Source: Armatimonadota bacterium
GTDB taxonomy: Bacteria > Armatimonadota > SYMT01
Direction: 5' to 3'
DNA length: 64,000 bases
Assembly (NCBI GenBank): GCA_046292385.1
Contig: JBKBRF010000015.1
Coordinates: 1-64,000, forward strand
In this document: piece by piece, positions 27,719 to 53,194 of the stretch
Position numbering within the stretch: position 1 is the stretch's first letter
Layout: the number at the start of each line of letters is the position of its first letter
Position numbers and translations under genes: made by a program
The notes under the pieces: model-generated
Seen by the model: the letters and a program-made list of their open reading frames with translations, nothing else
Told to the model about the DNA's origin: nothing
The model's database searches: none

Positions 27719-27896
27719 CACTCGGAGCCGAAGCTGGGCGGTTACAGTGAGATGAACCACAGCGAGCCCACCCGCGACTTGGCGGGCCGCGCAGAGTGTG
27801 ACTTTACTCCTGCTCGAGCGGGAAAGCCGGGAGGCCATGAGCGACCTGGCGAAGAACTTTCAGATAGTCAGGCGCTTGATCCCTTGGGTAGCGTAA

Positions 27897-30188: not shown

Positions 30189-30205
30189 TGGAGGAAGAGG
30201 TAGCT

Positions 30206-35616: not shown

Positions 35617-37641
35617 GATACTGCTGGCGAACCGTTAGCCCTCGGTTGGTAAGCTCAAGTTACCGCCGTCATCATCCGGCTAAAGGCGCTCCGTCGGGTC
35701 TTTGCCAAGGGCACTTCCGCGAGCCACTGGGCCACCCGGTAGAAGTTCAGCGCGGTCGCGGTGAGCAGGTGTTGGAGCCGCGTCTTGGCGAGACCCAGGT
35801 AGCGACAGCGCCGCAGGCCGCACCGTCGCAACCCTTGGGAGAGCGTTCCTTCTACTCCGGCGCGGAGCGCGTAGGTCTCTTTGAAAGTTGTCGTCGTCTC
35901 TCGGACCCGGGCCGCCCGCAACGCCTCGTATTCAGCTTGCGTACGGAGCGTCACGGTCCGGCGAGCGACCTTGGAGCGGGTGCATTGCTCGCGACACGGG
36001 CATCTCCCACAGTCGCGCGTCGCGAAGCCGATCTTGATCACGGGAGTGCCCCGACGATCCACCACCGGATTCCACTTCGAGCTCCGCTTCCCCTGGGGAC
36101 AGGTCGCGTACTCTTCCTCCCAGTCCACGACGAAGTCGCTGGCGGCGAAGCCAGCTCCGGCCCGAGCTTGCCACCGGTAGTCGCCGCGGGTAGGTCCGAC
36201 CAGGTCGACCCCGAAAATCTCCCGACTGCTGATGAACAGCCCCGCATCGAGGTAGCCGGTATCCACGATTTGCTGGTCCGGGAGCAAGTCGCGGGTTTGG
36301 AGCTCCGCCTGGATGACGGGCGTGAGGTCCCCATCGGCGACGGGAGCCGGCGTCGTCTGCACTGCGGTAATGAGGTGGGGTGCATCGGCCTCACAGGTCT
36401 CGGTCAGATGCACTTTGTAGCCTTCCCACTGCGTCGTGCCTTTCACGCCGTAGCGAGCATCCGGGTCATAGGGTGTCCCGAGGAACCCGCTGGCCGGAGG
36501 GATCTCCGCATTGGTCCGCCAGCGCACCGAGCATTCTGCGCCGACAGCGGGGGGTTCGCGGTGGTAGTTCTGGACCCATACCTGACGCAGCGTCTCCACG
36601 GCGGGCAACTCCCGGAGCCACGCCGGAGCCGTCTCGGCGGTCACCGCCAGGAGTAAGGTATAGCCATCCCGACCGATGCGAGTGGCCAGCACTTCCCGTG
36701 CGGCGGGCTCCTTCGGCAAGCGCTCGTCATCGAAGCGGCGGGCGTACGACTGCGCCCACTCGGGCGGACAGAGCGGCCGCAGCCACTCCGGGGCCACGGT
36801 CGCCAGCACATTCAGGGCATGCCGCAGCGTCTCGCCGACCGCTTCCAGGCGGTTCATGGCCCGGGCTGCGGCCAGGACGTGCGTGGAATCGGTCCGCTGC
36901 CGGCCTCCCGCCTTCAGCAGATTGCGGGCTCGGAGATGATCCAGGAGGGTTTCGAACAGCAGTAGCTCCGCGGAGCCGGCGATCAGGCGAGTGCGGAACT
37001 CAGACAGGACGGAGGCGTCAAAGCCCGGATCGTCGAGCTCCAGCCCGAGCAAGTACTTCCAGTCCAGGCAGCGGCGGACGGCATCCGCCGCCTGCCGATC
37101 CGAGAGCCCTTCGATGAATTGGAGGATCACGACCAACGCAAGCCGCCAGGGGGCATGCGCCGGTTGACCACAGGGCGGGAACAGCGCGGAGAATTGGGCA
37201 TCGTGAAACAGGGTCCCGAACTCGTCGCGCATGGTGAGATAGGGGTTGCCCTTGGGAAAGGCGGCTTTGGCTACTCGGGCAGTCGCGGCGGGCACGGGCG
37301 TGAACTGGTCTGGGCGCAGGCACATCGCAGAACTCCTTCCCCGGCCTCGGGCCTCCGGGCATCCGGGCCAAGGTAGTCTTTCCCAAAACCTGCTCCGTGC
37401 CCGTACCGGCTTGGGGTGTACGCGTGCAGCGGGCGAGCTGCCAACCACGAGCAAGCGAGCGATAGGCTAGCGTCAGGGGCGGGAGAGCGAACCGGGCGCG
37501 GGGGTGTGGAAGAGCACCCAGCCAGCCAGAGCCACCTGAACCGGGGCAGCCACGTCGGCGCCTCGACCGCCCCGCGCATGTCGCTGCCAAGCACACGAAC
37601 CCCGCCTAGCAAGCACGCGGTAACGGTTCGCCAGCAGTATC
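35617..37641 (-). mobile_element. IS1182-family element with perfect 21-bp IRs and CATTTT target duplication
   Basis: GATACTGCTGGCGAACCGTTA (35617-35637) and its reverse complement (37621-37641); CATTTT at 35611-35616 and 37642-37647. Confidence 0.92.
35655..37325 (-). CDS. IS1182-family transposase
   Basis: LSDRQAADAVR, WKYLLGL, QRTDSTH, YDPDAR, GYKVHLTETC, RAGVEGTLSQ; start set at MCLRP. Confidence 0.93.
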   Translation of the reverse strand: MCLRPDQFTPVPAATARVAKAAFPKGNPYLTMRDEFGTLFHDAQFSALFPPCGQPAHAPWRLALVVILQFIEGLSDRQAADAVRRCLDWKYLLGLELDDPGFDASVLSEFRTRLIAGSAELLLFETLLDHLRARNLLKAGGRQRTDSTHVLAAARAMNRLEAVGETLRHALNVLATVAPEWLRPLCPPEWAQSYARRFDDERLPKEPAAREVLATRIGRDGYTLLLAVTAETAPAWLRELPAVETLRQVWVQNYHREPPAVGAECSVRWRTNAEIPPASGFLGTPYDPDARYGVKGTTQWEGYKVHLTETCEADAPHLITAVQTTPAPVADGDLTPVIQAELQTRDLLPDQQIVDTGYLDAGLFISSREIFGVDLVGPTRGDYRWQARAGAGFAASDFVVDWEEEYATCPQGKRSSKWNPVVDRRGTPVIKIGFATRDCGRCPCREQCTRSKVARRTVTLRTQAEYEALRAARVRETTTTFKETYALRAGVEGTLSQGLRRCGLRRCRYLGLAKTRLQHLLTATALNFYRVAQWLAEVPLAKTRRSAFSRMMTAVT

Positions 37642-37693
37642 CATTTTGGTGACGCAGGTGTCAGGAAGTGCCAGGCGCGTGTAGTCCCAGGGC

Positions 37694-39370
37694 ATGAGCA
37701 TTCCTGCTTTGCTTCCCGACTCGGCACTGGTCCGCGTCGACTACCTCTCGGCCACGGACGACGGGATCACCCTCGTCGCCAGCGCGGTGCAGGAGCGGCC
37801 CTTCTGTCCGGACTGCCAGGTTCCGGCCACCCGGATCCACAGTCGCTATCATCGCCAACTCGCTGCCTTGGCGTGGCAGGGGCTCCGAGTACGGCTGCGG
37901 CTCACGAGCCGGAGGTGGTTCTGCGACCGGCCGGAGTGCTCCCGGAGGATCTTCACGGAGCGCTTTCCCGGCCTGCTCTCCCGCTCGGCCCGTCGGCTGG
38001 ACCAGCTTACCGAGACGCTCCGCCACCTGGCTTATGCTCTCGGGGGCGAGCCGGGAGCCCGCGTAGCGGAGCACCTCGGGATCGGCACGAGCCCCGACAC
38101 CCTCCTGCGCTTGCTCCGGGAGCGAGGACGGCAACGCGCTCCCCACGTGCCGCGGGTCCTGGGGGTGGATGACTTCGCCTTCCGGCGCGGCCATACGTAC
38201 GGCACGCTCCTCCTGGATCTGGAAACCGGGGCTCCCGTCGACCTACTACCGGACCGAAAGGCGGAGACGCTGGCACGATGGCTGGAAGATCATCCGGGCG
38301 TGGAGGTGATTAGCCGCGATCGCGGCGGGAGCTACGCCGATGGGGCCCGGCAGGGAGCTCCCCGGGCACAGCAGGTGGCGGATCGCTGGCACCTCCTCAA
38401 GAACCTGGTCGAGGCGCTGGAGATCACCCTCACGTCGGAACAGCGGGCGCTGCAGCAGGCAGCGGAACTCGGGGAGCCTGCCACGGAAGAGGCGGTCGGG
38501 AAGGCCGCGGACCCCGCCGGGGAAACAGTCGACGTGTCCGCTCCTCCGTGCCCCGCCGCGGCGGAGCCCTCCGGCCGCGCCGAACGGGACCGCACGCGCC
38601 GGCGAGACCGCCGGCGCGTTGCTTACGAGGAAGTACTGCGACTACACCGCGCCGGTTACTCCCTGCGAGAGATCGCAGAACAGACCGGGAAGTCTCGCTG
38701 GACCGTCTCCAAGTACGTGCGCGCCGACGCCTTTCCGGAGATCAAGCAACGCCAGCCGCGACCCACGCAGTTGGATCCGTTCCGTGCCTACCTGGAGCGT
38801 CGGTGGGAAGAAGGCTGCCACAACGCCGCGCAGCTGTGGCGAGAGATCGAGGCGCAGGGCTACCGCGGCGCGGTCTCGCTCGTCCGGGCTTATCTCTCCC
38901 AACGTCGGGCTCGCCTGCCGGCAGAGGAACGGCGCACCAGCGGCCCGGTGCCGCGAAAGCCACACGCGACCCGCCCCCCGGCTCCCCGGGCGCTCGTCTG
39001 GTGGCTGGTCGGAGCCCCGGAGAAGTTGACGAGTGAGCAGGTAACGTTTCTCGCGCGGCTGACGGAGACTTGCCCGGCCGTCCAGGGTTGGCAGGAGCTC
39101 GCTCGCGCGTTCTTTCGCCTGGTGCGGGAGCGAGATGTGGAAGCACTCCCGCCGTGGGTGGAACTCGCCCGCCGGAGCGGGAGCAAAGAGCTGGCGAGCT
39201 TCGCGACGGGTCTGCGCCGGGACTGGGAAGCGGTGGTGGCCGGCGTCTTGTTGCCGTGGAGCAACGGTCCGGTCGAGGGCCAGATCAACCGCTTGAAAGC
39301 GCTGAAGCGCCAGATGTATGGCAGAGCCGGCTTTGAACTGCTGCGCGCTCGCGTCCTCCGGCCGGGGTAA
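37694..39370 (+). CDS. ISL3-family transposase
   Basis: CPDC zinc finger, LGVDDFAFRRG, SRDR, ADRWHL, SNGPVEGQINRLK..KRQMYGRA. Confidence 0.95.
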   Translation: MSIPALLPDSALVRVDYLSATDDGITLVASAVQERPFCPDCQVPATRIHSRYHRQLAALAWQGLRVRLRLTSRRWFCDRPECSRRIFTERFPGLLSRSARRLDQLTETLRHLAYALGGEPGARVAEHLGIGTSPDTLLRLLRERGRQRAPHVPRVLGVDDFAFRRGHTYGTLLLDLETGAPVDLLPDRKAETLARWLEDHPGVEVISRDRGGSYADGARQGAPRAQQVADRWHLLKNLVEALEITLTSEQRALQQAAELGEPATEEAVGKAADPAGETVDVSAPPCPAAAEPSGRAERDRTRRRDRRRVAYEEVLRLHRAGYSLREIAEQTGKSRWTVSKYVRADAFPEIKQRQPRPTQLDPFRAYLERRWEEGCHNAAQLWREIEAQGYRGAVSLVRAYLSQRRARLPAEERRTSGPVPRKPHATRPPAPRALVWWLVGAPEKLTSEQVTFLARLTETCPAVQGWQELARAFFRLVRERDVEALPPWVELARRSGSKELASFATGLRRDWEAVVAGVLLPWSNGPVEGQINRLKALKRQMYGRAGFELLRARVLRPG

Positions 39371-39467
39371 GGGGAACTGCGACGGCGAGCGGCCGAGCAC
39401 CTGTAGGGCTGATCTGCAGGGGCAGGAGTGGCCACCACGGCTCACCAGAAGTGCGGGAGAGCCATTT

Positions 39468-40646
39468 TCACTTCGGCGTTGACACCAAGCTCTTCCACCC
39501 TTCTCGGCGCTGCTGATAGTGGAGGAGCGTGAGCGCCGCGCAGCGAAGGCCGCCGAGCACCTGCACGAGGGTGGGGTTCGCACTTCGGCTCTCGTCTTCC
39601 CGCAACAGCGTGTCCCGCACCCAGTGGGAGCGGTTCTCGATCTGCCAGTGCGATCGGATCAGCGTCAACAACTCCCTCGCTCCCGCCTGACGGCGCTCCA
39701 AGCTCGTGATCCCGTAGACCAGCGTGCGCTCTGCAGGCTGCTCCTGACCGGCACGCGAGACCCAGCGCACCCGCTCCAGCAAAAAGTACTGGCGAGCCCG
39801 TCCCCAATCCAGCCGCTCACCGGGCGGGGGCGCGACGAGCGTCAGGCGTCGGAGCTCCCGCCGGCCATGTCCCCGCTCATACTGCTCTACGGCTTCGGGG
39901 TGCCAGCTCTTCGGGAGCGCCGTGGCGAAGATCTCCTGTAGCGCCCCCTGCAGACCGGGTTGGTTTCCCTTCACCGGCATCACGTAATCGGCTCCCGCCG
40001 CGACGAGGCCGAGGGCGATCTCTTCTTGCGTGAGGAGGGCATCCACGACCACGACGCGGCCGCGCACCGGCAAGCGCAGGAGCAGCTTGGGCACGGCGGG
40101 AATCTCATTGCTCTTCCGCGAGACGGGCTCCAGGTCGAGGGTGATCCCCAGGTCGTGCGTAAAGGCCGAGAGCAGGTGAGCCACCTCTGACCCTTCCCGG
40201 AGACTGCCCTTAACCGTCTTTCCGTCACACGAGAGCGCCGCTTGCCCCTCTGGATCGAGATACGCCAGCAACGCCAGCGCCCAGGCCCGCAGTTGGGCGG
40301 CGAAGCAGGTCCAGTCGAGGGCGGAGAGCACTTCGTGCAGGGTGCTGGCCGCGGGCGTCTTGCCTTCCCGGAAGCCCAGAGCGCGGCGCACGGGCTCCTC
40401 TGCCCCGCGCCCCCACTCGTGGATGCCCTGGCGGTGGGTCCGCCCTGCCAGCGTAGCCACCACCACGAGCAGGAGAATGGCCTCCAGCGGGTGGCGCTTG
40501 CCTCGGGCCTGCCGCGGATCGGGGACTTGGCACAGATACTCGCGCAGCTTGGGCGATTCGCCCGCAGAGACCGTTGCTTCGGAGACGGAGCGAGTGGGTA
40601 CAGGAAGCGGCCCAGCGGGCGGCGAAGCGGAAAGGGCGGCAGTCAC
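39468..40646 (-). pseudogene. ISAs1-family transposase, C-terminally interrupted; element end CAGGGCAATTC at 40739
   Basis: VPDPRQARGKRHPL, DGKTVKGS, SNEIPA, DALLTQ, VKGNQ, HWQIENRSHWVRD. Confidence 0.9.
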
Positions 40647-40873: not shown

Positions 40874-41071
40874 ATGCGTTCAACGTCTCAAACGTCGCCT
40901 AGCCACCGTGCAGCACCAGTGAGCATCTCGATCGGTAACCTCCGAGATGGAACCCTAGGCATCTACCACCCTACTACCACGGCCAGTTGTGGCAGCGGAA
41001 CAGGAAGCGGCACAGGCAGCGGTAGTGGTACAGGCAGCGGTAGTGGCAGTGGTGGAGCCGGCACCACCTAG
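40874..41071 (+). CDS. Putative RiPP precursor peptide A (65 aa, Gly-Ser/Thr alternating core)
   Basis: GGAG RBS; leader motif SIGNLRDGTLGI; core C(G[S/T])10GGAGTT written with mixed synonymous codons. Confidence 0.75.
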   Translation: MRSTSQTSPSHRAAPVSISIGNLRDGTLGIYHPTTTASCGSGTGSGTGSGSGTGSGSGSGGAGTT

Positions 41072-41098
41072 GGCCGTCTCACGCTATCTAACCCACCC

Positions 41099-41344
41099 AT
41101 GCCCATCCACCTCAAAGCTCTGATGAAACCACGCTTCGAAGACCATTTCTATCGTGAACGGCCATCCTTCGAGATAGGCCATCTCTCTGATGGTCACCTT
41201 CTCATCAGGGACCGTCCTCTACCCGCGCCTTCAGCCAGTGGCTCGGGCAGTGGCTCGGGCAGTGGCTCGGGCAGTGGCTCGGGAACTGGCTCAGGCAGTG
41301 GATCCGGCACCGGATCCGGTAGCGGCTGTGGCCAGTTGGTGTAG
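41099..41344 (+). CDS. Putative RiPP precursor peptide B (up to 81 aa, Gly-Ser/Thr alternating core)
   Basis: Leader motif EIGHLSDGHLLI; core S(G[S/T])14GCGQLV; ends 5 bp before the radical SAM gene. Confidence 0.75.
   Translation: MPIHLKALMKPRFEDHFYRERPSFEIGHLSDGHLLIRDRPLPAPSASGSGSGSGSGSGSGSGTGSGSGSGTGSGSGCGQLV
41236..41283 (+). repeat. 12-bp tandem repeat (CAGTGGCTCGGG)x4 inside precursor B
   Basis: Read directly; encodes (SGSG)n. Confidence 0.85.
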
Positions 41345-41349
41345 GCGAG

Positions 41350-43542
41350 ATGGACGCAAATTCGAATGCTCGTCAACGTCCGGCCGCAAATCAGCGTGTC
41401 CAAGTCTTGTATTTCAAGACCGTTTCACGGCTACTGCCCCACTACTTCTCGGTCGATCATGCGGATATTCACACCCACTGGGACGCGGAGGTAGGCGCTA
41501 ACGTTACGAGCGTCGATCTCGGAGCAATGTTCTGGCGGTCCATCTTGGATACTCATAAGCTGCGCGATCTTCTTCGCACCCGTGAAGTGGACGCCGAGGA
41601 GTCCGACCTGGTCCAACGCCAATTCGATGACGCTACCGTAAGCGCCCTGCCCAAAGCACTAGCGACCCTTGGTTCCGTCCGAGAGCGCGTGCCCGACCCA
41701 AGGGATCTGTGGTCGGCTTTCCACGTGGTGAGCCGAGCAACCGACATCGCATCGGGTCTTTTGGCTGACGAACTCGACGCGCACCTCGCGCGAGGACTTG
41801 TGAGCACCGGCTTCCGCCAGTATGATCTAGAATCCATCCTGGACTCCGTAGAAGCCAATCCGAACATCCCACTCGTCGTTACGATTCAGCGGCTGTGCGA
41901 AAGAGCAATCGCAGAGATCAATGGACCGGACTGGTTGATTCCAACGGTGGTTGTAATCAATCTGCGCAACGATGGTGAGATCGCTCAGGTACTATCAGTC
42001 GCATCCTTCTTCAAGCGACAGCGCATAAATGCGACGATCGTCTTGGATGCGTCAGGCTCTAATGAGCAGTTCAGCTTTAAATCATGGACGGACGCTTTCT
42101 TAGCGCAACGTGCACGAGTGGGGAAGTGGATCAACTACTTTCTCCCGCAGCAGGACTATAAAGCCTCGCTCAAACGTGTTATCTCGTCGTTGGCTGCTGC
42201 TAAGCGTCCCTCCCAAGAGAGTGTTTCGGGACTTGTTGAGCTCGCCCCTGCGCCTTTCCCCCCCGAGTCCGATGCGGTGCCGGCCAAGTCAGTTGACGCA
42301 GCGTTCTCGGATTACATTAGTAACTTACCAACTTTCAAAGTCGCAGGACTGAAGACGGTCGTTGCTCGTCTTCTACCCACCCGTTGTCATTGGTCCGCCT
42401 GCACCTTCTGCACGATCAACTCACAGCACCCTTTGCCTCGCGGCAAAGTGTATATGGACCTAAATGACTTGGGACATATGAATGCGCTGCTAGACGTGTT
42501 GGAACGTGATCAAGTGGAGTCAGTTATTCTAACAGATGAAGCTTTGCATCCGACGGTATTGAACACCTTTGCCTCGGCCGTGTTGCGCCGCGATCTTAGG
42601 TTTGTCTACCGTGCTCGAGCTCGATTCACCGACGAGTTTACACAAGAGCTCTGTGATCAGTTATACGCATCTGGTTGCCGGTACCTTGGTCTCGGTCTAG
42701 AGGCAGCTTCACCGCGGGTCAATTTAATAGTGAACAAGCATCGAGGTGCGTCACCCAATTACCTGCATATTCTGGCGAACCTTGAGAACGCCGGGGTCCG
42801 CCCCCACGTCTATGCCATACTAGGGTTCCCTACAGAAACCCTAGAGGAGATTAGCGCGACCTCAACGTTGCTCGCCTCAGCAATCCGAAACTCAAAGTAC
42901 GTTACCACGAGCCCGAATCTGTTTTATTTAATGCGTGGCTCCAAGATGGCTGCAGAGCCTGACAAGTATGGAATCAAGTTGCTCCCTACCGATACCATGG
43001 CACTCGTCCACAACTTTACGGAAGAGCAATGGTCGCACAATCGCAGCTATGCAAGCGAATGCGTTTCAGCGTTACATCGCTTGCAGTTTTCCCCTGATGT
43101 GGAGAATTCAACCGAGGCGGAGAGCTATTGGCACTTCATCGATCAGACCGGCATATTCTATCTTGAGAAGGTGAACTACTCTAACAATCCCTATCGGCAA
43201 TTGGCTGCCGATGCTGCACGAATCAGCGGGGATGAAATTCGGACAGGCTTGCTGCTCGAAGGCGAGCTCTTTGAACTTGAAGGCGCCAGTCAGGACGGAT
43301 CTCTCCTTCTCTGTGATTGGGTAACCAACAACTACGCGCGTATCGACGAACGCTTCCGGAGCGTTATCTCTGCCATCCTTTCGGGCTACGATAGCCGCGA
43401 GGCTGTTCAACTGGTCGAGCCGCAATTGCGAGAGGATGCCGTGCATCTCGTCACCGCTTTGTGCCAGAGTAGAATGTTGTCGCCGAGGCGCGAGGTGAAT
43501 CACCTGGAGGAACGACATGGCTATTACGCTGGAACGCATTGA
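41350..43542 (+). CDS. Radical SAM protein (class B/B12-type core) with divergent N-terminus and possible C-terminal RRE
   Basis: CHWSACTFC, TDEA, GLEAAS, ILGFPTET; C-terminal beta-beta-beta plus helices pattern. Confidence 0.85.
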   Translation: MDANSNARQRPAANQRVQVLYFKTVSRLLPHYFSVDHADIHTHWDAEVGANVTSVDLGAMFWRSILDTHKLRDLLRTREVDAEESDLVQRQFDDATVSALPKALATLGSVRERVPDPRDLWSAFHVVSRATDIASGLLADELDAHLARGLVSTGFRQYDLESILDSVEANPNIPLVVTIQRLCERAIAEINGPDWLIPTVVVINLRNDGEIAQVLSVASFFKRQRINATIVLDASGSNEQFSFKSWTDAFLAQRARVGKWINYFLPQQDYKASLKRVISSLAAAKRPSQESVSGLVELAPAPFPPESDAVPAKSVDAAFSDYISNLPTFKVAGLKTVVARLLPTRCHWSACTFCTINSQHPLPRGKVYMDLNDLGHMNALLDVLERDQVESVILTDEALHPTVLNTFASAVLRRDLRFVYRARARFTDEFTQELCDQLYASGCRYLGLGLEAASPRVNLIVNKHRGASPNYLHILANLENAGVRPHVYAILGFPTETLEEISATSTLLASAIRNSKYVTTSPNLFYLMRGSKMAAEPDKYGIKLLPTDTMALVHNFTEEQWSHNRSYASECVSALHRLQFSPDVENSTEAESYWHFIDQTGIFYLEKVNYSNNPYRQLAADAARISGDEIRTGLLLEGELFELEGASQDGSLLLCDWVTNNYARIDERFRSVISAILSGYDSREAVQLVEPQLREDAVHLVTALCQSRMLSPRREVNHLEERHGYYAGTH

Positions 43543-44299
43543 CTCAGATGGGCTGGAAAGGGCTCGTGCTCTGCCCTTCTACGATTTTGTAGAAACAGCT
43601 GCAAAAACCGGAGAAGCCTACTCCATCAATGACAACGGCTACTGCATAGTGGCGCACTCCGACTCACTTGTACCGAATCTCGTTGTTGAGATTAAGCTGC
43701 CTCGGCTTCGGTTTCCGGATGATTACGTTGAACTCAGCTACAAGCTGAATGACATCAGTAGTGGCTTCATGTGGTTTGATACATCGATGAACGACGCCTT
43801 CGATTTCGCATGGCGAATGCGATTGCCTCTCCGGGCGCAGTCACCGTTGTACATCAGCGATGGTCATTCGTTGCCAGATTCCATCGATGGCTTGGATGTT
43901 GTCCAGGCCGATGACGACCATCTGGACACCGCAGTTGCACTTCTCGGTAACATTCCAGATTATCACGGCGGCCTTCGAGCAGAATTCGTCGAACGCAAGA
44001 TTGCGTCACGGAATGTACTCTCACTCGTCCGGGGCGATCAGGTGCACGGGGTTGTGGCCCTCACCGAGCAACCTAACAACTTCGTGACCGCTAGCGCACT
44101 GGCGGTGCTCCCAGAGGAGCGCGGGGCAGGCCTCGGACAGCGATTTGCTCAGTTGCTGCTGCGAAGGATCCATGGCGAAGGAAAGCGGCTCGTAGCTGGT
44201 ATGGCTAATGACGTTCCTGCTTCCGCCCGTATTGCTCGAAGTTTGGGGATGACTGTGCAGAGGCACGCTTTCACTGCCCAGATCTGTTCTGGCTTTTAG
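43517..44299 (+). CDS. GNAT-family acetyltransferase (C-terminal GNAT domain)
   Basis: LAVLPEERGAGLG acetyl-CoA motif and ASARIARSLGM; GGAGG RBS overlapping the upstream gene. Confidence 0.8.
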   Translation: MAITLERIDSDGLERARALPFYDFVETAAKTGEAYSINDNGYCIVAHSDSLVPNLVVEIKLPRLRFPDDYVELSYKLNDISSGFMWFDTSMNDAFDFAWRMRLPLRAQSPLYISDGHSLPDSIDGLDVVQADDDHLDTAVALLGNIPDYHGGLRAEFVERKIASRNVLSLVRGDQVHGVVALTEQPNNFVTASALAVLPEERGAGLGQRFAQLLLRRIHGEGKRLVAGMANDVPASARIARSLGMTVQRHAFTAQICSGF

Positions 44300-44314
44300 C
44301 CGGACGTTGAAGTA

Positions 44315-44361
44315 AGCAAAACGCGCTGCCGGAGGAAGACCCTGCGGCAGCGCGTTTTGCT
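44315..44361. terminator. Perfect 17-bp inverted repeat, bidirectional-terminator-like
   Basis: AGCAAAACGCGCTGCCG-N13-CGGCAGCGCGTTTTGCT. Confidence 0.65.
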
Positions 44362-44413
44362 GTAGTTACACCTGACCCCCAGGTGCGGCGCGCTTTGGTG
44401 GAACTAAGTAGCG

Positions 44414-46252
44414 GTGGATAAGACTGTGTTTCGACTTGTTTCCATGCCGTTCGTCTCAGCCCGGCGTCCATCCATTCAACTTGGGCTACTGAAGTCGATA
44501 CTCGCCCAGCAAGGAATAGAATGTACCACTCACCACTTGAATCTCTATTTTGCGGAGGACATCGGTCTGCCTCTCTACGAGGCCATATGCGAACACCGCG
44601 GCACACAGATTGGTGACTGGGTCTTCGCACGTTCTGCATTCGGAGGAGACGCTCCACCTATCACCTCAATGACCCGGGATGTATTCAGCCCAACGATTGA
44701 ATCTATAAATCGTGAGGTGGAGTTAGCTTTCGAGGAATTGGTCGAACTACGAGATCACGTGGCTCCGCGGTTCCTTCGCGAAATGGCCAGCCTACTGGAC
44801 TGGTCAGACAGTCTTGCCGTCGGTTTCACCAGCACTTTCCAGCAGAACGTAGCTTCTCTAGCTATGGCTCGTCTTATCAAGGCTACCGCCCCAAACGTCA
44901 AAATTATCTTCGGTGGAGCAAATTGTGAAGTCCCTATGGGGCAGGAACTGCTTCGGAGTTTCCCTTGGGTCGATTACGTTGTCGCGGGAGAAGGGGACGA
45001 CGCACTTCCAGGGTTGTTACGCTGTTTGATGCACGGTGAGGACCCCGAGAACATTCCTAACGTCCTGAGGTCTGGGGCGTTACCTCAACTGGACTTTGCC
45101 CCGGAAGTGGTGCAATCCCTGAGTCAGTGTGTCCCGGATTACGATGAGTATTTCTCCACTTCGATTGCTACAGGAGTTCTCAGCGCCGAGGCGTCCGTAG
45201 ATGTCACTTTGCCGATCGAAACTGCTAGAGGCTGCTGGTGGGGTGAGAGGCAGCATTGCACGTTCTGTGGTTTAAATGGGTCACACATGCGCTATCGGAG
45301 TAAGCCGCCGGAGGCCGTGCTTTCGGAGGTTTCGGCGCTTTCAACTCGCTACAAGAGCTTCTTTTTTGCGGCAGTCGACAACATACTAGATTTCGGTTAC
45401 TTCGATACCTTGGTGCCGATGCTGGCCCAGGCGGGTCTTGGATACTCGTTCTTTTACGAGACAAAGTCGAACCTTTCAAAGCAGCGTATTCGGCTATTAT
45501 GGCAATCAGGGATAAGGATGGTGCAGCCTGGCATTGAATCCCTCTCGACTGACATTCTGGCGCTGATTAAAAAGGGGGTGAGTGGCCCTCAAAATATTTG
45601 CGCACTGAAATGGCTCACCTATTATGGTATTCGAGCTTATTGGAACCTTCTCTGGGGTTTCCCAGGCGAGGAAAAGGCGTGGTACGATGCCCAGGCGGCG
45701 CTAATCCCCCGACTGACACACTTACAGCCACCGCAGGGCATGGGGCGGATCCGCTTGGAGCGATTCAGCCCACTCTTCCGTGAGAGAGGACTGTTTAAGC
45801 TAATCAAACACGAGCGTAGTTATGCTGAAGCGTATCCGATTGGCGTTAACTTGGACCAGATAGCCTACTTTTTCGACTATGAGTTGAGAGATGCAGTTCC
45901 ATCGGAGGCATATGAGAATACAAGACTCGCTGGAGAAACCTGGTCGGCCATGTGGGCGGAAGCGCCCACACCGCCATATTTGAAATATCGGGCCTCCCCG
46001 CACTATATCAGGTTTTACGACGGCCGGGATCCTGATAATCTTAGGACAATCGGGTATTCTGGCTCCGCATCATCAGTTTACCGCATCGTTGACGAGAAGC
46101 CGATATCAGTACGGGAGCTTATGAATCGGATCGAGGGCACAAGTTCGTCCGAAGTTCTAGGGTGGTTAGATCTTTTCGAAGAACAGGGGCTGGTCGTGCG
46201 TGAGAATGGAAGGGTCTTTGGGCTCGCCACCCCAGACCTCGAGGGGCGTTAG
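44414..46252 (+). CDS. RiPP-maturation B12-dependent radical SAM C-methyltransferase (PoyB/PoyC-like)
   Basis: VSMPF...PSIQLGLLK, GFTSTFQQN, GGANCE, RGCWWGERQHCTFCGLN (CX7CX2C), QPGIESL, WNLLWGFPGE, RFSP. Confidence 0.92.
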   Translation: MDKTVFRLVSMPFVSARRPSIQLGLLKSILAQQGIECTTHHLNLYFAEDIGLPLYEAICEHRGTQIGDWVFARSAFGGDAPPITSMTRDVFSPTIESINREVELAFEELVELRDHVAPRFLREMASLLDWSDSLAVGFTSTFQQNVASLAMARLIKATAPNVKIIFGGANCEVPMGQELLRSFPWVDYVVAGEGDDALPGLLRCLMHGEDPENIPNVLRSGALPQLDFAPEVVQSLSQCVPDYDEYFSTSIATGVLSAEASVDVTLPIETARGCWWGERQHCTFCGLNGSHMRYRSKPPEAVLSEVSALSTRYKSFFFAAVDNILDFGYFDTLVPMLAQAGLGYSFFYETKSNLSKQRIRLLWQSGIRMVQPGIESLSTDILALIKKGVSGPQNICALKWLTYYGIRAYWNLLWGFPGEEKAWYDAQAALIPRLTHLQPPQGMGRIRLERFSPLFRERGLFKLIKHERSYAEAYPIGVNLDQIAYFFDYELRDAVPSEAYENTRLAGETWSAMWAEAPTPPYLKYRASPHYIRFYDGRDPDNLRTIGYSGSASSVYRIVDEKPISVRELMNRIEGTSSSEVLGWLDLFEEQGLVVRENGRVFGLATPDLEGR

Positions 46253-46448: not shown

Positions 46449-47650
46449 TCACCAGTTGCGCGTCTCCACTGCCGCATGCCGTGTACGAGCGAGTGCTTCC
46501 TCGACGGCTTGCTTCAGGCGCCCAAGACCGGCGTAACTCCGGACCGGCATCTCGCGGTGCTTCGCGTCCTGCCAGATGGGTTCGATCCGGGAGAGCTCCG
46601 GGCAGTAGGAGGGCAGATTAGAACAGGTGCACGTCCGCCGCAGCCAGGCGGACCGCCTCTGCCTGGACCCGCGTGCTCCGATGCACCGAGTAATTGTCGA
46701 TCACGATCGTCAGGGGACGCTCGCGCCGCCAGTGGGGTGGCGCGTCTGCTGGCCGCCCCGCGAGCAACCAGAGAAAAGCCGGGAACACCGCGGCGCCGAT
46801 GACGCCCACTTCCTCCGGGACCAGCCCGTGATCAGCGGGCTCGTTCCGCTTCGCTCTTGCGTGCCTGCTTGGCCCGGCTACTCGGCAGGCTGGCAAACGT
46901 CAAGAAGGAGAAGGTGTCGGCGAGCGGGCCGTGGGAGAAGTAGCCGCCGATAGCATTAACTCTCCGTCCCTGGGGTGCCTCATACGGGACGGTGACCCGC
47001 TGTCGCACGAGCCCCCATCTGTAGCTCGTCGGCGCGGTGGGAGCGAAGCCGGCTTGATCTACGTGGCAGAGGTCCAACCGACCGGCGGCTCCCCCTTTTC
47101 CAGCTCTGCCAGCTCCGCCCGCTTCTCTGCCACCTTTGTGGGGTCCTGCTTGTGCTTCAGACGGCGCTGGGTGCGTTTGTACAAAAGCTTCTCCCGCTTG
47201 AGCAGGCGGCCCAGCCAGTCCGCCGAGAGCCGGAGGCCGTGGTGTTCTTCCAGCCAGTCCGCCAGTTGCGCCGCGGTCCACGTCCGGTCTCCTTTTGCCA
47301 ACTCGGCGCGGAGCGCTTGCCGCAGGGCGGGAGTGAAAGCCGACGGCTGCCCCACGTGTGGTTGGTCGGGGAGCCCGGCGAAGCCCTCCTGGAGAAAACG
47401 GCGGAGCCAGAAGCGCACCCGCTGGGGAGACTGCTGCAGATGTTGGGCGATGCGGGTGGCACTCCACCCCGCGTGGGAAAGCCGCACCATCTCCGGGCGA
47501 TCCCGGGTGCGCGGCTTGGTGCCGGGGTCGCGGGTAAGCTGCCGTAGCTTGGTGAGTTGCTCCCCAGTCAGACGGACGCGATACAACCTCTGTCCCTCCC
47601 ACGGAGGATTACGTGTCCGAGCGTGGCACTTACTCCCCCGGACCGCTTAG
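46449..47650 (-). mobile_element. Degenerate IS630-family element (HTH orfA 47059..47586, frameshifted DDE part)
   Basis: HTH ORF with GAAAAGGGGG slippery site at 47091-47100; fragments DQAGF, IDNYSVH and LPSYCPELSRIEPIW are separated by frameshifts or a stop; end CTAAGCGG. Confidence 0.85.
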
Positions 47651-48012: not shown

Positions 48013-49578
48013 TTACCAAGTCCTCCCGAGCGCGGACTCTACCGGTCTTGGCGCGATGCTCGGGGCAGGCGGTGGGGAGGCCCGGCGTATGGCTTCGAGT
48101 GACGCCCTGCTCACCTCAAGGTCGGGAAGATGGCGCGACTGTGCCGCGATGGTGAATGGCTCTACCGGTTCGAAGTCGACCTTACCGCCGCCGTAGCGGT
48201 AGTTCGAACCCACCATCCGCAATAACTCCCGCGCTTCGCTCGGCTCTGCCTGCGCCAGCAACTCCGGGAGCGTGTTACAGGTGGAGATGAACCACTCCAC
48301 CGCCTCTCGCGGGTCACCGGGATCGAGTTCGGACCGCTGCACCTGCTCGGCGACCTTCGCTTCGTCGAGCATGAGTGCCTCCTTCTTGGCGAGGTACTGC
48401 TCGTCCGTGAGGTGACCGCCCAGGCGCAGGTCGAGGAGCACCATAAGACGGCTACGGACCTCCTGCTGCCGCCGCTTCAGGGCAGCGAGCCCGTCGTCGC
48501 CACGCCGCCGCTCCGCATGCAGCACTTCGGCCGCCTCCCGAAGACTGACAGCCAGTTCCGGCCGGAGCTGAAGACGGCCATCCAGCGCCGCCGCGATCAG
48601 CGCCAGGAACCGCGCTTCAGGGACATAGGGCTCCTGGCAGTCGCCGCGCCGGCGGCTGCAGCGGTAGTAGATGTACTTTCTCTTCTTGAGATCCCCGACG
48701 ACGGCGCAGCCACACTCGCGGCAGACAAAGAGACCGCCGAATCTGAAGTCATGCGTCTGGCGGCGGGGCCGCGACCGGCCGGCCAGCACCTCCTGGACCT
48801 TCTCGAAGAGGGCGACGGAGATGAGCGGCTCGTGGCTGGCGGGGTGCAGCTCTCCTTTGAACCGGAGGAAGCCGCAGTAGAACGGGTTGGTGAGGATCCG
48901 GTCCCGCAGGATGCTCTTGGTGAGCAGCTTGCCGGTCAGGCGCCCGACCAGGCCCGCTTCGGCCATCTTCCGGGTCAAGGTGGCGAGCGAGTACTCGCCG
49001 GTCGCGAAGAGCTCGAACGCCTGGATGATCAGCGGGCCGAGCACCGGATCGATGATGATCCGCCGGGGTGCCGTCGGGTCCTTGACGTTCAGATACCCGA
49101 GCGGAGCCCAGCCCGGCCATTCGCCGCGGGCGAGCTTCTCCCGCAGCCCCTTCCGGACCTCCTCGGAGAGATTGTCGACGTAATACTTGGCGAAGACGAC
49201 GTTGATCCCGAAGATCATCTTCCCCTGGGCGTTGTTCTCGTAGGAGCCGGTGACGAAGAGCAGCTCCAGGCCGGCGTCGATCAACTCGTTCAGCCGCGCC
49301 CAGTCGGCGATGTTGCGCAGCAGCCGGTCGGGCTTGTGGGAGAGGATCCGCACCGCGGTGCCTTGCCGGAGCAGCTTCTCAGCCTGCTTGAGCATCGCCT
49401 CGAAGAGCGGCCGCCCCGGACGGCGCGCCGAGTGAGACTCCCGGATCAACTCGGTGATCGGGGTAGCGTGCCGGTCTGCGAAGGCGCGGCACTCCTTCTC
49501 CTGGGCGTCGAGGCTCAAGACCTGGCGGTCATCGTCCTCGCTGGAGCGGCGAGTGTAGAGGAAGGTGGCACATGGCAT
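48013..49578 (-). CDS. Large serine recombinase (resolvase, recombinase, Zn-ribbon and coiled coil)
   Basis: YTRRSS catalytic motif, ESHSA, PDRLLRN, APLGY, ILTNPFYCG, CRECG...YYRC; AAAGGAGG RBS. Confidence 0.95.
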   Translation of the reverse strand: MPCATFLYTRRSSEDDDRQVLSLDAQEKECRAFADRHATPITELIRESHSARRPGRPLFEAMLKQAEKLLRQGTAVRILSHKPDRLLRNIADWARLNELIDAGLELLFVTGSYENNAQGKMIFGINVVFAKYYVDNLSEEVRKGLREKLARGEWPGWAPLGYLNVKDPTAPRRIIIDPVLGPLIIQAFELFATGEYSLATLTRKMAEAGLVGRLTGKLLTKSILRDRILTNPFYCGFLRFKGELHPASHEPLISVALFEKVQEVLAGRSRPRRQTHDFRFGGLFVCRECGCAVVGDLKKRKYIYYRCSRRRGDCQEPYVPEARFLALIAAALDGRLQLRPELAVSLREAAEVLHAERRRGDDGLAALKRRQQEVRSRLMVLLDLRLGGHLTDEQYLAKKEALMLDEAKVAEQVQRSELDPGDPREAVEWFISTCNTLPELLAQAEPSEARELLRMVGSNYRYGGGKVDFEPVEPFTIAAQSRHLPDLEVSRASLEAIRRASPPPAPSIAPRPVESALGRTW

Positions 49579-49720
49579 AGGCCTCCTTTAGTGGGTAACT
49601 TTGCGTACGTACCCTAACTCAGAGATCGCTCGTTCGCAATAGGGCTCCTAAAGGCAGGAAGTCGATGCCGCGCGCAGCACGCCGGTTGCCGGGACCGCCC
49701 TGCGCACGTACGCTCGGGCC

Positions 49721-50005
49721 ATGTCTACTTCAGCTTCCCGCCCCGCCCACACCCCACGCCAACTCCTCACCGCCGCGCGCGTGAAGGCCCTGCTGACCCT
49801 GGAGGACCCCGGCTACGGCAAAGAATTCGCTCCCGAAGAGTGGGAGCGAATTGCAGAGCGGCTCTCCGCCCTCACCCGGCTCCTGTACCGGATGCGCACG
49901 CGCCAGCTCGCCCAGCCCAAAGCAGAGGCGCGAAGTGGCTCCTCCCGTAAGGAAAACGGCGTTGATCCGCCTGCCCTGCCGGTTGCCTCTACACAAAGCC
50001 AGTGA
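49721..50005 (+). CDS. Small hypothetical protein divergent from the recombinase
   Basis: 94-aa ORF with an amphipathic helix (EEWERIAERLSALTRLLY). Confidence 0.5.
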   Translation: MSTSASRPAHTPRQLLTAARVKALLTLEDPGYGKEFAPEEWERIAERLSALTRLLYRMRTRQLAQPKAEARSGSSRKENGVDPPALPVASTQSQ

Positions 50006-50061
50006 GAGTGCGGACCTCCCGCTCGTGACGGGCCTGTGGGCCGGTACGGGCGTGCTGTCCG

Positions 50062-50448
50062 CTATGGGTCGTCCGGGCGGGACTCTGTCGGCCGGGGCTG
50101 TTTATCGTGCCGGAGCCGCCGTGCCGGCTCTTCCAGCTGCCCCTGGAGAAACCCGGCGGGGCGCTTTTTCGCCTTCGCCTGATCGATCAGCTCCAACAGA
50201 CCTTCCCGGACCTGCTCGTCGCGCACGCCGTAATCGAAGAGCAAGACGTGCATCAGGCAGCGCGCCGCGTCCGTTACATTCAAACCGAGACCCCGCTCCA
50301 GGATACGCCGGGCCTGCTTGGCGGTCGGGACCTTACGTCCCGCTTCGAGATTGGCGATGTAGCTCCGCGGAACGTGAAGCCGTTTCGCCAGCTCCGAGGC
50401 GGCCATCTTACCTCGCAGCTTCTTGAGGAGAATTCCGAAGCTCTCCAT
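50062..50448 (-). CDS. XRE-family HTH regulator (repressor-like)
   Basis: FGILLKKLR...ELAKRLHVPRSYIANLEAGRKVP. Confidence 0.88.
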   Translation of the reverse strand: MESFGILLKKLRGKMAASELAKRLHVPRSYIANLEAGRKVPTAKQARRILERGLGLNVTDAARCLMHVLLFDYGVRDEQVREGLLELIDQAKAKKRPAGFLQGQLEEPARRLRHDKQPRPTESRPDDP

Positions 50449-50669
50449 TCGAGAGGCTCCCTTTCTCCCGCTCCTTCTTGCCCTCCCTGCCGGAGCACCG
50501 CCACGCGGTGCTTTTGTTGCGGACTCATCGTACCAAAGCCGCTTCCGTTGTCAACAGCTGCGCTCCCGGCGCGAAGTGCCACGAGTGACAGGGCAGTTGC
50601 GGGAAGTTTTCCGCAGTGGAAAACTGGAAGCTATCGGGCCCGCGAGCATGGGCCTGGAAAGGAGGCGCG

Positions 50670-50900
50670 ATGAACAACCATCGCAACCACTTACAAGAGT
50701 ACCTGGGGACGATCGAGGAGTACTGGTTCCACGGGCCGCAGCGGAAGTTCGCCCGCGACGCCGGGATCCCGGAGACGACCCTCTCCCGCATTCTCCGCAA
50801 GGAGAGCACGCCGACCTTTCCGGTCATTTGCCGGATCGTCCGCGCGCTGGAGAAGAAGCTCGGCCGCAAGATTGACCCGCGGGAGATCTTCGAGCCGTAG
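50670..50900 (+). CDS. XRE-family HTH regulator (Cro-like)
   Basis: QRKFARDAGIPETTLSRILRKESTP; AAAGGAGG RBS. Confidence 0.85.
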   Translation: MNNHRNHLQEYLGTIEEYWFHGPQRKFARDAGIPETTLSRILRKESTPTFPVICRIVRALEKKLGRKIDPREIFEP

Positions 50901-50928
50901 CCCGGCTCCCGACCCTGAAAGGAGGTCT

Positions 50929-51465
50929 ATGTCCTATCCCCCTCATCGTTCCTGTCGCCGCCCCGGCGACCACTCTGACCCCTGGCAGCCGGCCCTCGCC
51001 GAGCTGCGTAAACTTCCCGTTCCTGCTCTCGACCGGCTCGTCCGCGCCTGGCTGCACCGGCTCGGAGCGTGCGCCGCCCGTCCATCCGGCCGCTGCCCCG
51101 GCGCCCGCACCTACCACGTCCTTTTCACGGCGACGCCGGTGCCCACTCCCATGCGCGTGCGCGTGCATCAGCGCCGAAATCGGCTCCAGCCGCAGCACGT
51201 CGAAGCGTTCGCCGGTCACCTCACCCGGATCGGCGTCGCCGCAGGGCTCCTCGTGACCACCGGCGAGATCAGCCGGGAAGCGGCGAGTGTCGCCGCCGGC
51301 TTCGTGATGCCGCGAATCCGGCTCTACAGCGGCCTCGACTGGGCCTCCGAGCTCGTCCGCTGTCGGCCGGGTCTCCGGCTGCGTAGCGTCTGGCGCTACC
51401 TGCTCGATCTCGGCGGCCGTGGCGAAACCGACCGGTGCTCCCGCCAACCAGGAGGCCGCCGATGA
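50929..51465 (+). CDS. Mrr-like restriction endonuclease fold protein lacking catalytic residues
   Basis: VEAFAG...GLLVTTGEISREA...IRLYSG matches the Mrr_cat C-terminal half; D and QxK are not seen; AAAGGAGG RBS. Confidence 0.7.
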   Translation: MSYPPHRSCRRPGDHSDPWQPALAELRKLPVPALDRLVRAWLHRLGACAARPSGRCPGARTYHVLFTATPVPTPMRVRVHQRRNRLQPQHVEAFAGHLTRIGVAAGLLVTTGEISREAASVAAGFVMPRIRLYSGLDWASELVRCRPGLRLRSVWRYLLDLGGRGETDRCSRQPGGRR

Positions 51466-52580
51466 GCCTTGCACCCCCCTCCCGCCGCGGCGACCTCGCG
51501 TCCCTACCGCTCAACTTCTGGCTCGTGGGGCAGGAAGGCGCCTCCACCCAACGACGAGGCCGCTACACCCCGGCCTCCCTCCGCCACCCTGGCAAGATGC
51601 TCCCCGCGCTGGCGCGGGAGATCCTCGCCGCCTACACGCAGCCGGGCGACTGGGTCCTCGACCCGATGTCCGGGATCGGCACGACCGGCGTGGAAGCACT
51701 TCACCTCGGCCGGCACTACGTCGGGATCGAGCTGGAGCCCCGCTTCGCCGCCTGGCAGCGGCAGAACCTCACCCTCGCCCGCCGCCAGGGCGCTGCCGGG
51801 ACGGGGGTCGTCTACCAGGGCGATGCCCGCCGCCTGGCGCCGGAGCCCGGTTCCTTGCCGGAGCCGTCGACGCCCGGCTCCGCTGCCGGCGGTCCGATCG
51901 ACGCCGTCATCACCTCGCCACCCTACGGAGACCGGCTCGCCTCCGTACGCACTCCCTCTCGCACCATGCAGCGCCTGATCGAGCGCGGTCGGTTCGGGGG
52001 AGATATCGTGCCGGGGATCTACGGCCGCGGGGCAGCGAACCTCGGCAACCTGCCGGACGCCGAGTACCTCCGAGAGATGCGGGCGGTCTACGCCGGCTGT
52101 CTGGAGGTCCTGAAGCCCGGCGGCATTCTCGCGGTCGTGATCCAGCCCGGACGCGACCGGCACCGGCTGCGACCCCTCCACCATGAAACCGCCCGGATCT
52201 GCGTCGAGCTCGGCTTCGAGCTACTCGACGAGCGGGTCGCGATCCTCTCCCGGATCGAAGCGGAGCGTGGGCGGCCGCCGACGGTCTATGCCCACAGCCA
52301 CTTCTTCAAGCGGCTGGCCGCGGCCCACCTCCGGGACGCCGGCTACCCGGTGTCGCTGGGGCAGCTGGAGTACGTGCTCGTCTTCCGCAAGCCGGGCTTC
52401 AAGCGGCCAGGCGTGCGGACCGGACAACCCAAAAGCGGCCTTTCGACCGCTCTTGGCGGCGACCCGCGCGGCCGGGGGGAGGAGGACTTGTTGCCGGCCT
52501 TCCTGCGGGTGCCTGTCGCCAGCGTAGCTCAACCGGCCGCGTCCCGCAAACCGGCTGCCACCCACGAAAGGAGCGTATGA
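51462..52580 (+). CDS. DNA amino-methyltransferase (SPPY, probably N4-cytosine)
   Basis: HPGKM, VLDPMSGIGTT, GIELE, TSPPY, LKPGG, YVLVFRK. Confidence 0.88.
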   Translation: MSLAPPSRRGDLASLPLNFWLVGQEGASTQRRGRYTPASLRHPGKMLPALAREILAAYTQPGDWVLDPMSGIGTTGVEALHLGRHYVGIELEPRFAAWQRQNLTLARRQGAAGTGVVYQGDARRLAPEPGSLPEPSTPGSAAGGPIDAVITSPPYGDRLASVRTPSRTMQRLIERGRFGGDIVPGIYGRGAANLGNLPDAEYLREMRAVYAGCLEVLKPGGILAVVIQPGRDRHRLRPLHHETARICVELGFELLDERVAILSRIEAERGRPPTVYAHSHFFKRLAAAHLRDAGYPVSLGQLEYVLVFRKPGFKRPGVRTGQPKSGLSTALGGDPRGRGEEDLLPAFLRVPVASVAQPAASRKPAATHERSV

Positions 52581-53194
52581 CCCGTCGATCTAACCCCGAT
52601 CCCCAAAACCGAGTCTCCCCCGACGCCTACCTGCTCGGGCGCTGGTTTACCGCCGCCCGGCGAGAGGGACTCCTGACCGCTCTCACTCCGGAGGCCTGGC
52701 ACACGCTCTCGGCCGTCCTCTCGTTCACCCGCCGCGACGGCGGGCGCTCCTTCACCCTCGATCAGCTGGCGCTCGCCACCGGCCAGCCCCGGGAAATCGT
52801 CGAAGCGCGGCTCCGGGAGCTGGCGCGGACCGCTTGGAACGGCGAGCCGCTCCTCCAGCCGGAGTGCGACCCGGCCGGCGACCTCTGCGGCGCCCTGCTC
52901 GCTCCGCTGGAGCTACTCGCGCGCGTTACCGGCTCCTCCCGGGCGACAGTGCCCGAGCCGACGGTGGCACAGCCCGCGAAGTCCGCCGAGGCGGCCGGCG
53001 ACGCGGAGCTGCAGGCCGACCTCCATAACCTGGGCTTGAACGAATCGCAAATCGGCTCCCTGCTACGCAGCTACGGACCGGCGCGGATCCGGCGGCAGCT
53101 CGGCTGGCTGCCGGAACGGCACGCCCGCAATCCTGCCGCCCTCCTCATCCGGGCGGTCGAGCAGGACTGGGAGCCGCCCCGGGAGGCGCCATGA
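52577..53194 (+). CDS. Hypothetical wHTH/replication-associated protein
   Basis: TLDQLALATG...ARLRELA HTH; C-terminal RNPAALLIRAVEQDW; ATGA coupling on both sides. Confidence 0.6.
   Translation: MTRRSNPDPQNRVSPDAYLLGRWFTAARREGLLTALTPEAWHTLSAVLSFTRRDGGRSFTLDQLALATGQPREIVEARLRELARTAWNGEPLLQPECDPAGDLCGALLAPLELLARVTGSSRATVPEPTVAQPAKSAEAAGDAELQADLHNLGLNESQIGSLLRSYGPARIRRQLGWLPERHARNPAALLIRAVEQDWEPPREAP

Follow-up and report, generated by a model that had tools for sequence, protein, structure and literature searches.

Ribosomal peptides tailored by radical S-adenosylmethionine (SAM) enzymes are a known kind of system. Several described examples resemble parts of the locus reported here, a five-gene cassette in a 64,000-nt stretch of DNA (the window; positions 1 to 64,000 of contig JBKBRF010000015.1, assembly GCA_046292385.1) from an Armatimonadota bacterium. 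Microcin B17-type linear azol(in)e peptides have cores rich in Gly followed by Ser, Thr or Cys, a pattern that is heterocyclised, and some pathways to peptides that are synthesized on the ribosome and modified post-translationally (RiPPs) carry GNAT acyltransferases that act in the making of lipidated or N-acetylated peptides. The nearest analogue in logic is the TvgA/TvgB system of poly-cyclopropylglycine, in which a single radical SAM enzyme acts again and again on a short core motif arranged head to tail (PMC9062424). TvgB belongs to IPR023867, and the authors state that such a repeating core had not previously been reported (PMC9062424); the cyclopropyl synthase is called an RS-SPASM enzyme elsewhere (PMC10878394). 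Cobalamin-dependent radical SAM enzymes offer a further comparison. PoyC, from the proteusin (polytheonamide) pathway, methylates an amino-acid side chain, and OxsB, which shares the CX4CX2C cluster spacing with one enzyme of the cassette, is presented in a review as a cobalamin enzyme of oxetanocin biosynthesis and is not described there as a methylase (PMC9204698). Another B12 radical SAM enzyme is reported to C-methylate a glutamine of methyl-coenzyme M reductase to 2-methylglutamine (PMC13469106, PMC11796369).

The cassette consists of five co-directional genes, which encode two candidate precursors (A and B), a 730-aa radical SAM enzyme, a 260-aa GNAT-fold protein and a 612-aa radical SAM enzyme (Table 1). 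We lean, by a modest degree, toward the view that it represents a horizontally acquired and undescribed radical-SAM peptide-maturation (RiPP-type) family. The class-defining set is the precursor, the CX4CX2C enzyme and the GNAT-fold partner; the methylase is accessory. A preliminary description of this DNA, made from its letters alone, had put the PoyB/C-type CX7CX2C enzyme at the core of the system. That assignment fails, since the methylase is found at only 4 of 12 comparable loci and the other parts at all 12.

These 12 loci are the ones at which a close homologue of the 730-aa enzyme is accompanied by enough flanking sequence: the window, 3 genome loci and 8 metagenome loci. Two fragments of 1.1 and 1.8 kb, which leave no room for neighbors, and the distant relative L027 were set aside. 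Carriers are metagenome-assembled genomes of an Acidobacteriaceae, a Bryobacteraceae and an Allosphingosinicella member, the last a sphingomonad, and unassigned metagenome contigs, including some from soil. An open reading frame (ORF) with a (G-S/T/C)n core lies beside the enzyme homologue at every locus, 17 precursors in all. A homologue of the 260-aa protein is equally constant; L010 has three copies and L011 two, and in L012 one copy is joined by a second, weaker match downstream of the TIGR03975 gene. With short precursors of conserved leader and variable core next to their enzymes (17 precursors, 12 loci), the family appears to have the general makeup of a RiPP system.

An alignment of 14 precursors shows invariant leader residues G21 and L23 and invariant core Gly positions. 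The leader motif is h-G-(N/H)-L, the repeat number n ranges from 5 to 15, and Shine-Dalgarno sites precede most precursor starts at the related loci. Read by eye from the precursor listing, the residue X inside the Gly-X runs is always S, T or C, with 193 G[ST] units and a few G-C units in the 17 peptides; the core Cys residues are in register with the X positions, and none of the other single-nucleotide neighbors of Ser codons occurs at X. This restriction suggests that the residue next to an unhindered Gly must offer a beta-hydroxyl or thiol group, or a very small polar side chain at the least. The cores fall into four types (Table 1). In a maximum-likelihood tree of 13 close radical SAM enzymes and 3 outgroups, the enzymes group by precursor type (support 87/97 for type I, 81/80 for type III and 95/95 for types II and IV, which include the window). 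The tree agrees with co-diversification of enzyme and substrate but does not prove it, because relatives share type labels.

The two window precursors bear out most of what had been said of them. The coordinates of two tandem short ORFs and their quoted leader strings with a common motif were confirmed, the strictly alternating cores given as C(G[S/T])10GGAGTT and S(G[S/T])14GCGQLV, with a single Cys per peptide, matched exactly, and the genes downstream of the ORFs do follow in the stated order, first the CX4CX2C radical SAM gene, then the GNAT-like gene, then the CX7CX2C B12 radical SAM gene. Six-frame translation of the whole 7,043,135-base genome yields four (G[ST])≥5 runs; precursors A (10 units) and B (14) are the two longest, and the other two are runs of 5 units elsewhere. 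The ATG of precursor A has GGAG 8 nt upstream, and precursor B has an alternative ATG at 41123. Codon use is varied, with Ser drawn from both the AGY and TCN boxes and three codons each for Thr and Gly. The preliminary description took this variety as a sign of protein-level selection; the variety itself stands, but the precursor B DNA also repeats every 12 nt (6.2 copies, with 88% matches), so that the repeat grew in part by recent duplication, although the frame was kept at the protein level. Searches of the window precursors against Pfam and NCBIfam, and of the 14 aligned precursors against NCBIfam, gave a low-complexity lipoprotein model, far below its cut-off, as the sole match, and none had an NHLP or Nif11-type leader, in line with the earlier judgement. 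We considered a lipoprotein, with a Cys followed by a Gly-Ser linker, and dropped this reading, as the leaders lack a hydrophobic signal segment. A promoter and terminator scan gave nothing usefully above the shuffled expectation and no promoter-like site 5' of precursor A. Rfam models at the gathering threshold had no match in 15 loci, and so no cobalamin riboswitch was seen.

Table 1. Features of the cassette, of related loci (L numbers) and of the surrounding window; positions refer to the window unless a locus is named.
Feature	Position	Strand	Description
Precursor A	40874..41071	+	65 aa; Cys directly before 10 G-S/T units; tail GGAGTT; leader S-I-G-N-L
Precursor B	41099..41344	+	81 aa; 14 G-S/T units after S; leader I-G-H-L; type II tail G-C-G-Q-L-V
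730-aa radical SAM enzyme	41350..43542	+	CX4CX2C; putative divergent cobalamin-type N-domain; unassigned C-terminal domain; class-defining enzyme
260-aa tandem GNAT-fold partner	43517..44299	+	Start overlaps the end of the radical SAM gene by 26 nt
612-aa cobalamin-type radical SAM enzyme	44414..46252	+	TIGR03975, CX7CX2C; accessory tailoring enzyme
Core type I			Aromatic-Cys-(GS)n-G-A/G-hydrophobic
Core type II			No leading Cys; ends G-C-G-E/Q-V/L-V/G; includes precursor B, L012, L020, L023
Core type III			Short repeat, then acidic tail; beside a second radical SAM paralogue in two acidobacterial loci
Core type IV			Leading Cys and internal Cys
Type III precursors	L010 8108-8440; L011 10297-10602		G-N/K-L leader, five Gly-Ser units, G-C-H-G-E, acidic tail of ~30 residues
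Weaker second homologue of GNAT-fold partner	L012 10673-11518		
Papain-like (C70/C39-like) protease gene	L012 4429-4980		Upstream of the cluster
Cys/Ser/Thr-rich ORF	L016 7355-7594		79 aa; short GSGSG (by eye)
Three large genes	24017-33457	+	1233 aa (TCAD9, HD-CE), 763 aa (VWA), 1090 aa (tubulin-like)
Three transposase genes	35658-40646		Pfam DDE_Tnp_1_6, ISL3, and DDE_Tnp_1 with associated domain
Overlapping ORFs	46618-47602	-	Resemble a frameshifted insertion sequence (IS) element
Serine recombinase and following genes	48016-54033		Large serine recombinase, then DNA methylase, phage replication protein O-like gene

The 730-aa enzyme carries its cluster motif at C346-x4-C351-x2-C354. These are the only invariant Cys residues among 23 homologues, so that there is no SPASM-type auxiliary cluster, and Pfam finds no SPASM domain in the enzyme or in the 23 family members. 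Radical_SAM, matched in all 23, is the only Pfam domain detected; the top NCBIfam model, PhpK, reaches 44.6 bits where its cut-off is 600, a sequence search of the PDB returned nothing below E 0.3, and PADLOC gave one weak match (E 8.9e-5) and none for the other cassette proteins. Profile comparison with hhalign reaches further. Residues 36-540 align with P0117 (710 aa), in which B12-binding, Radical_SAM and PqqD domains are combined, at a probability of 99.7, and residues 162-533 align with TIGR03975 proteins at 97.8 (E 7.6e-13). In the alignment of the 730-aa family with TIGR03975, G-G-A-N pairs with S-G-A-N and G-F-P-x-E is common to both; the C-terminal ~190 residues are unmatched in both comparisons. 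In the ESM Atlas, residues 1-335 lie nearest the N-domains of B12-type radical SAM proteins (TM 0.60-0.64), a lead that comes from predicted models. Like the class B enzymes TokK, CysS, OxsB and TsrM, the 730-aa enzyme has an N-domain followed by a radical SAM barrel, with profile matches that run through the N-domain; it differs from them in its unmatched C-terminus and in the absence of any match to the Pfam B12-binding model (0 of 23 family members). We read it as a divergent offshoot of the class B cobalamin-dependent radical SAM enzymes.

Relatives of this enzyme are few. A large protein database holds 27 close homologues (35-47% identity), and a search of 1.84 billion cluster representatives gave 8 with more than 700 bits and 170 that reach E 1e-30. 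The plasmid search returned only distant radical SAM genes of at most 28% identity, and the phage search gave no match. The extended superfamily includes six giant proteins of 1800-2300 aa (P0072, P0080, P0092, P0104, P0116 and P0140) with three or four matched stretches each; P0072 contains five Radical_SAM stretches, four B12-binding stretches and one SPASM domain.

The identification of the 260-aa protein as a GNAT, made in the preliminary description, holds for the fold and less well for the sequence. Its residues 1-260 resemble clusters of ~250-330-aa tandem GNAT proteins in the Atlas (TM 0.70-0.78), again a lead from predicted models. Acetyltransf_1 matches at 20.8 bits, barely above the Pfam cut-off of 20.7, GNAT models of Pfam match only 2-3 of 18 homologues, and the family profile finds acetyltransferases in the PDB weakly (best E 0.003) and in the C-terminal half. 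Invariant residues of the 18 homologues lie mostly in the N-terminal half. In GNATs, the pyrophosphate of acyl-CoA is held by a loop of the form R/Q-x-x-G-x-G/A. This loop is kept in the window copy, L017 and L023, and nearly so in L018, all within the type II+IV clade, and is lost in the other homologues. As only this minority of the 18 homologues retains the motif, acylation, which had been suggested as a trait of the class, is unlikely to define it.

The 612-aa protein is readily classified. It matches TIGR03975 (RiPP maturation radical SAM C-methyltransferase) at 600 bits, with a cut-off of 282, and has the Pfam domains B12-binding and Radical_SAM; its family profile matches TokK, CysS, OxsB and TsrM in the PDB, and it has at least 7982 homologues. 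Among the 12 loci, TIGR03975 genes occur in the window, L012, L020 and L023, in each case with a type II precursor tail. By analogy with PoyC, this link with the Val/Leu tail suggests the tail as the site of methylation.

Distant kin of the family help to locate the substrate of the 730-aa enzyme. The enzymes of L013 and L014 are ~35% identical to it over the core, and these loci encode peptides that end in irregular Gly-Ser runs and G-G-W, a SPASM radical SAM enzyme and a PqqD-HExxH membrane protease. Between their precursors and those of the close family, nothing is shared but the repeat. Since the repeat alone follows the enzyme lineage across different leaders and accessory genes, we place the action of the radical SAM enzyme on the repeat itself. 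At L016, inspection by eye found the Cys/Ser/Thr-rich ORF of Table 1 between a distant homologue of the 730-aa enzyme and a second radical SAM-like gene, which we take to be SPASM-like from its Cys pattern, and also a subtilisin-like ORF; at L015, no Gly-Ser-rich ORF lies beside the distant radical SAM relative. A recognition element of the PqqD type (RiPP recognition element) is common in RiPP pathways and is not obligatory. Pfam and NCBIfam find none in the cassette proteins, and among the kin a PqqD domain is present only in distant ones, namely the L013 protease and P0117. Distant loci have the PqqD domain and lack the GNAT-fold protein, whereas the close family shows the reverse, a distribution that would make sense if the GNAT-fold protein bound the substrate.

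How does the cassette compare with the described systems? It resembles the proteusins in having a TIGR03975 cobalamin radical SAM enzyme next to a ribosomal precursor and in that many modifications per core would be expected. It differs in its (Gly-X)n core, in the absence of an NHLP or Nif11 leader and of an epimerase gene (Pfam, NCBIfam), and in that the TIGR03975 gene is optional and the constant parts are another radical SAM family and the GNAT-fold protein; with the leader test failed and the methylase optional, it is not a proteusin. The cores recall the Gly-Ser/Thr/Cys pattern of linear azol(in)e peptides, but neither in the window nor among the scanned neighbors of the related loci is there a YcaO cyclodehydratase or a dehydrogenase, and so the cassette is not read as an azole peptide system. 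SPASM maturases that form sactipeptide, ranthipeptide or ether links carry a Cys-rich auxiliary cluster domain that the 730-aa enzyme lacks. RiPP pathways with GNAT acyltransferases share the position of a GNAT-fold protein beside the precursor and differ in that here the acyl-CoA loop is mostly lost. TvgA, whose repeated TVGG motif comes closest in logic, has a unit of four residues rather than two, and the chemistry at Val must differ from that at Gly/Ser; the 730-aa enzyme is further set apart from TvgB by its three invariant Cys and its putative cobalamin-type N-domain.

No described class was found to match the leader or the core, which upholds the claim of novelty made at the outset. In Pfam and NCBIfam (June 2026), the precursors and the partner are without a model of their own, and the 730-aa enzyme is covered only by that of the generic radical SAM core. 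The searchable full-text literature contains no natural Gly-Ser-repeat precursor, and GSGSGS occurs there in papers with RiPP terms only as an engineered linker; subscription papers and supplements lie outside this scope, so that a prior description is possible.

We propose the following course of maturation. The leader would dock on the pair formed by the 730-aa radical SAM enzyme and the GNAT-fold protein, the latter chiefly binding the substrate and so taking the place that a PqqD-type recognition domain has in the distant relatives. The radical SAM enzyme would then abstract a hydrogen from each Gly-X unit and modify the repeat iteratively. In type II peptides, precursor B among them, the TIGR03975 enzyme would add C-methyl groups, probably on the hydrophobic tail, and leader removal and export would fall to unlinked genes. 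As to the modification of the repeat, the iterative methylation suggested in the preliminary description is one of several possible chemistries, of which two lead, both tentatively. Cobalamin-mediated C-methylation, for example at the Gly alpha-carbon, is favored by the kinship of the 730-aa enzyme. A cross-link or oxidation that uses the beta-OH or SH of X, to be entertained with similar reserve, is favored by the requirement for Ser, Thr or Cys at that position. A more speculative route, which we hold to be rather unlikely as a whole, is that a cobalamin-type radical SAM enzyme guided by the leader-binding GNAT-fold protein converts 10-15 Gly-Ser/Thr/Cys units into one identical non-proteinogenic unit; this might be a ring between backbone and side chain, or an alkylated residue of D configuration, which would make the pattern alternate between D and L.

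On the evidence of its base composition and distribution, the cassette is horizontally acquired in its host. Its GC content is 54.4%, compared with 68.9% for the genome, in which it is present as a single copy. The 730-aa enzyme family was not found in 40 relatives; of 401 genomes sampled from the host phylum, it was found in one, the host's own, and of 401 sampled from the phylum of L010, again in one, that of L010. Three transposase genes lie upstream and the IS-like ORFs lie downstream (Table 1), followed by the region of the large serine recombinase, which is probably an integrated element adjoining the cassette. Neither inverted nor direct repeats were found on its two sides to mark off the cassette. 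Farther upstream in the window, the three large genes of Table 1 form a module that looks like a conflict or defence system; PADLOC matches none of the three.

B12-binding domains score above cut-off in three other host proteins, of which one is 1245 aa long. The host probably depends on imported corrinoids: any cobalamin is presumably taken up, as these proteins exist in a genome that has no CobS or CobD/CbiB match.

Several observations weigh against our interpretation of the cassette as a member of a maturation family. The related loci share ancestry, and the count of 12 of 12 therefore overstates their independence. No protease, exporter or immunity gene is conserved across the 12 close loci, and L012 is the only one with a papain-like protease gene. 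Given the lack of Pfam B12-binding matches noted above, cobalamin use by the 730-aa enzyme is not established, and the host genome, which is 98.45% complete, gives no match for CobS or CobD/CbiB. Precursor B has no clear Shine-Dalgarno site at either possible ATG. Among the sequencing runs, no RNA run with the cassette is listed, the sole match being a DNA run labelled hot-spring metagenome, from which this DNA may come. The TIGR03975 copies are only 35-36% identical to each other (61% between L012 and L020), and the window copy is 43-46% identical to generic family members. The four genes are thus not mutual nearest relatives, and their link with the tail motif rests on 3-4 partly related loci; repeated recruitment of the methylase or rapid divergence of the copies would account for this.

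Other explanations of the cassette have to be set against these data. The repeat might be a flexible spacer, with the enzymes acting on its flanks, for instance on an edge Cys or on the hydrophobic or aromatic C-terminus, to give one large macrocycle or mycofactocin-type C-terminal processing. In nearly all cores a Cys opens or closes the run and the last residue is Y, F, V, M, W or A, and Thr and Cys positions near the C-terminus are conserved among precursor B, L012 and L020, all of which such processing would accommodate. A spacer would, however, tolerate Ala, Asn, Pro or GG, and the close family is strict in its G-[S/T/C] pattern over 193 units, with even its Cys residues in register with X; moreover, distant relatives share the repeat and not the termini, and the 730-aa enzyme lacks the auxiliary-cluster Cys of thioether-forming SPASM enzymes. 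We regard this explanation as unlikely. Alternatively, the precursor could be a multi-copy scaffold from which modified Gly-X units are excised as small dipeptide-derived molecules, as has been proposed for TvgA. There is precedent for a repeat-core peptide as the source of several small products (PMC9062424), and a repeat number that varies freely from 5 to 15 would suit it; the lack of a peptidase conserved in the 12 close loci and the defined Thr/Cys positions and conserved tails, which suggest one full-length product, make it quite improbable.

Two further explanations concern the DNA rather than the peptide. The cassette may be a silent passenger of a mobile island, intact by sequence but neither expressed nor functional in this host, where cobalamin, a protease or an exporter may be wanting. 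Its setting, with three transposase genes on one side and a broken IS-like gene and a serine recombinase on the other, its foreign GC content, the missing CobS/CbiB match and the absence of a promoter-like site before precursor A all speak for this; yet all five frames are open and full length by comparison with their homologues, and corrinoid use by the organism is evident from its three other proteins with such B12-binding domains. We consider silence in this host improbable, and it would concern activity there, not the identity of the family. The small ORFs might also be chance frames over a tandem DNA repeat, given the 12-nt period of precursor B and an opposite strand that is open as well. 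Across phyla, the same frame and leader motif are found again next to the enzyme, written in different codons, Shine-Dalgarno sites are present, Ser codons come from both boxes, and the 7 Mb of the genome contain only two long runs; with these observations, a chance origin is extremely improbable and close to refuted.

Our preferred reading remains that the cassette belongs to a radical-SAM peptide-maturation family, of which three traits are without described counterpart in the libraries and papers that could be searched: a core that is a pure dipeptide repeat, a class-defining enzyme outside the curated families, and a constant GNAT-fold companion whose cofactor loop is mostly degenerate. 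Any modification of so simple and repetitive a substrate would show up as a clean ladder of masses, and the chemistry should be unusually easy to read out. If the units of the repeat were indeed all converted to one non-proteinogenic unit, a floppy repeat would be turned into a rigid rod or helix of 20-30 residues, with new enzyme chemistry as well as new architecture. The family is rare and scattered across phyla, and its product may have a regular peptide backbone of a new kind.

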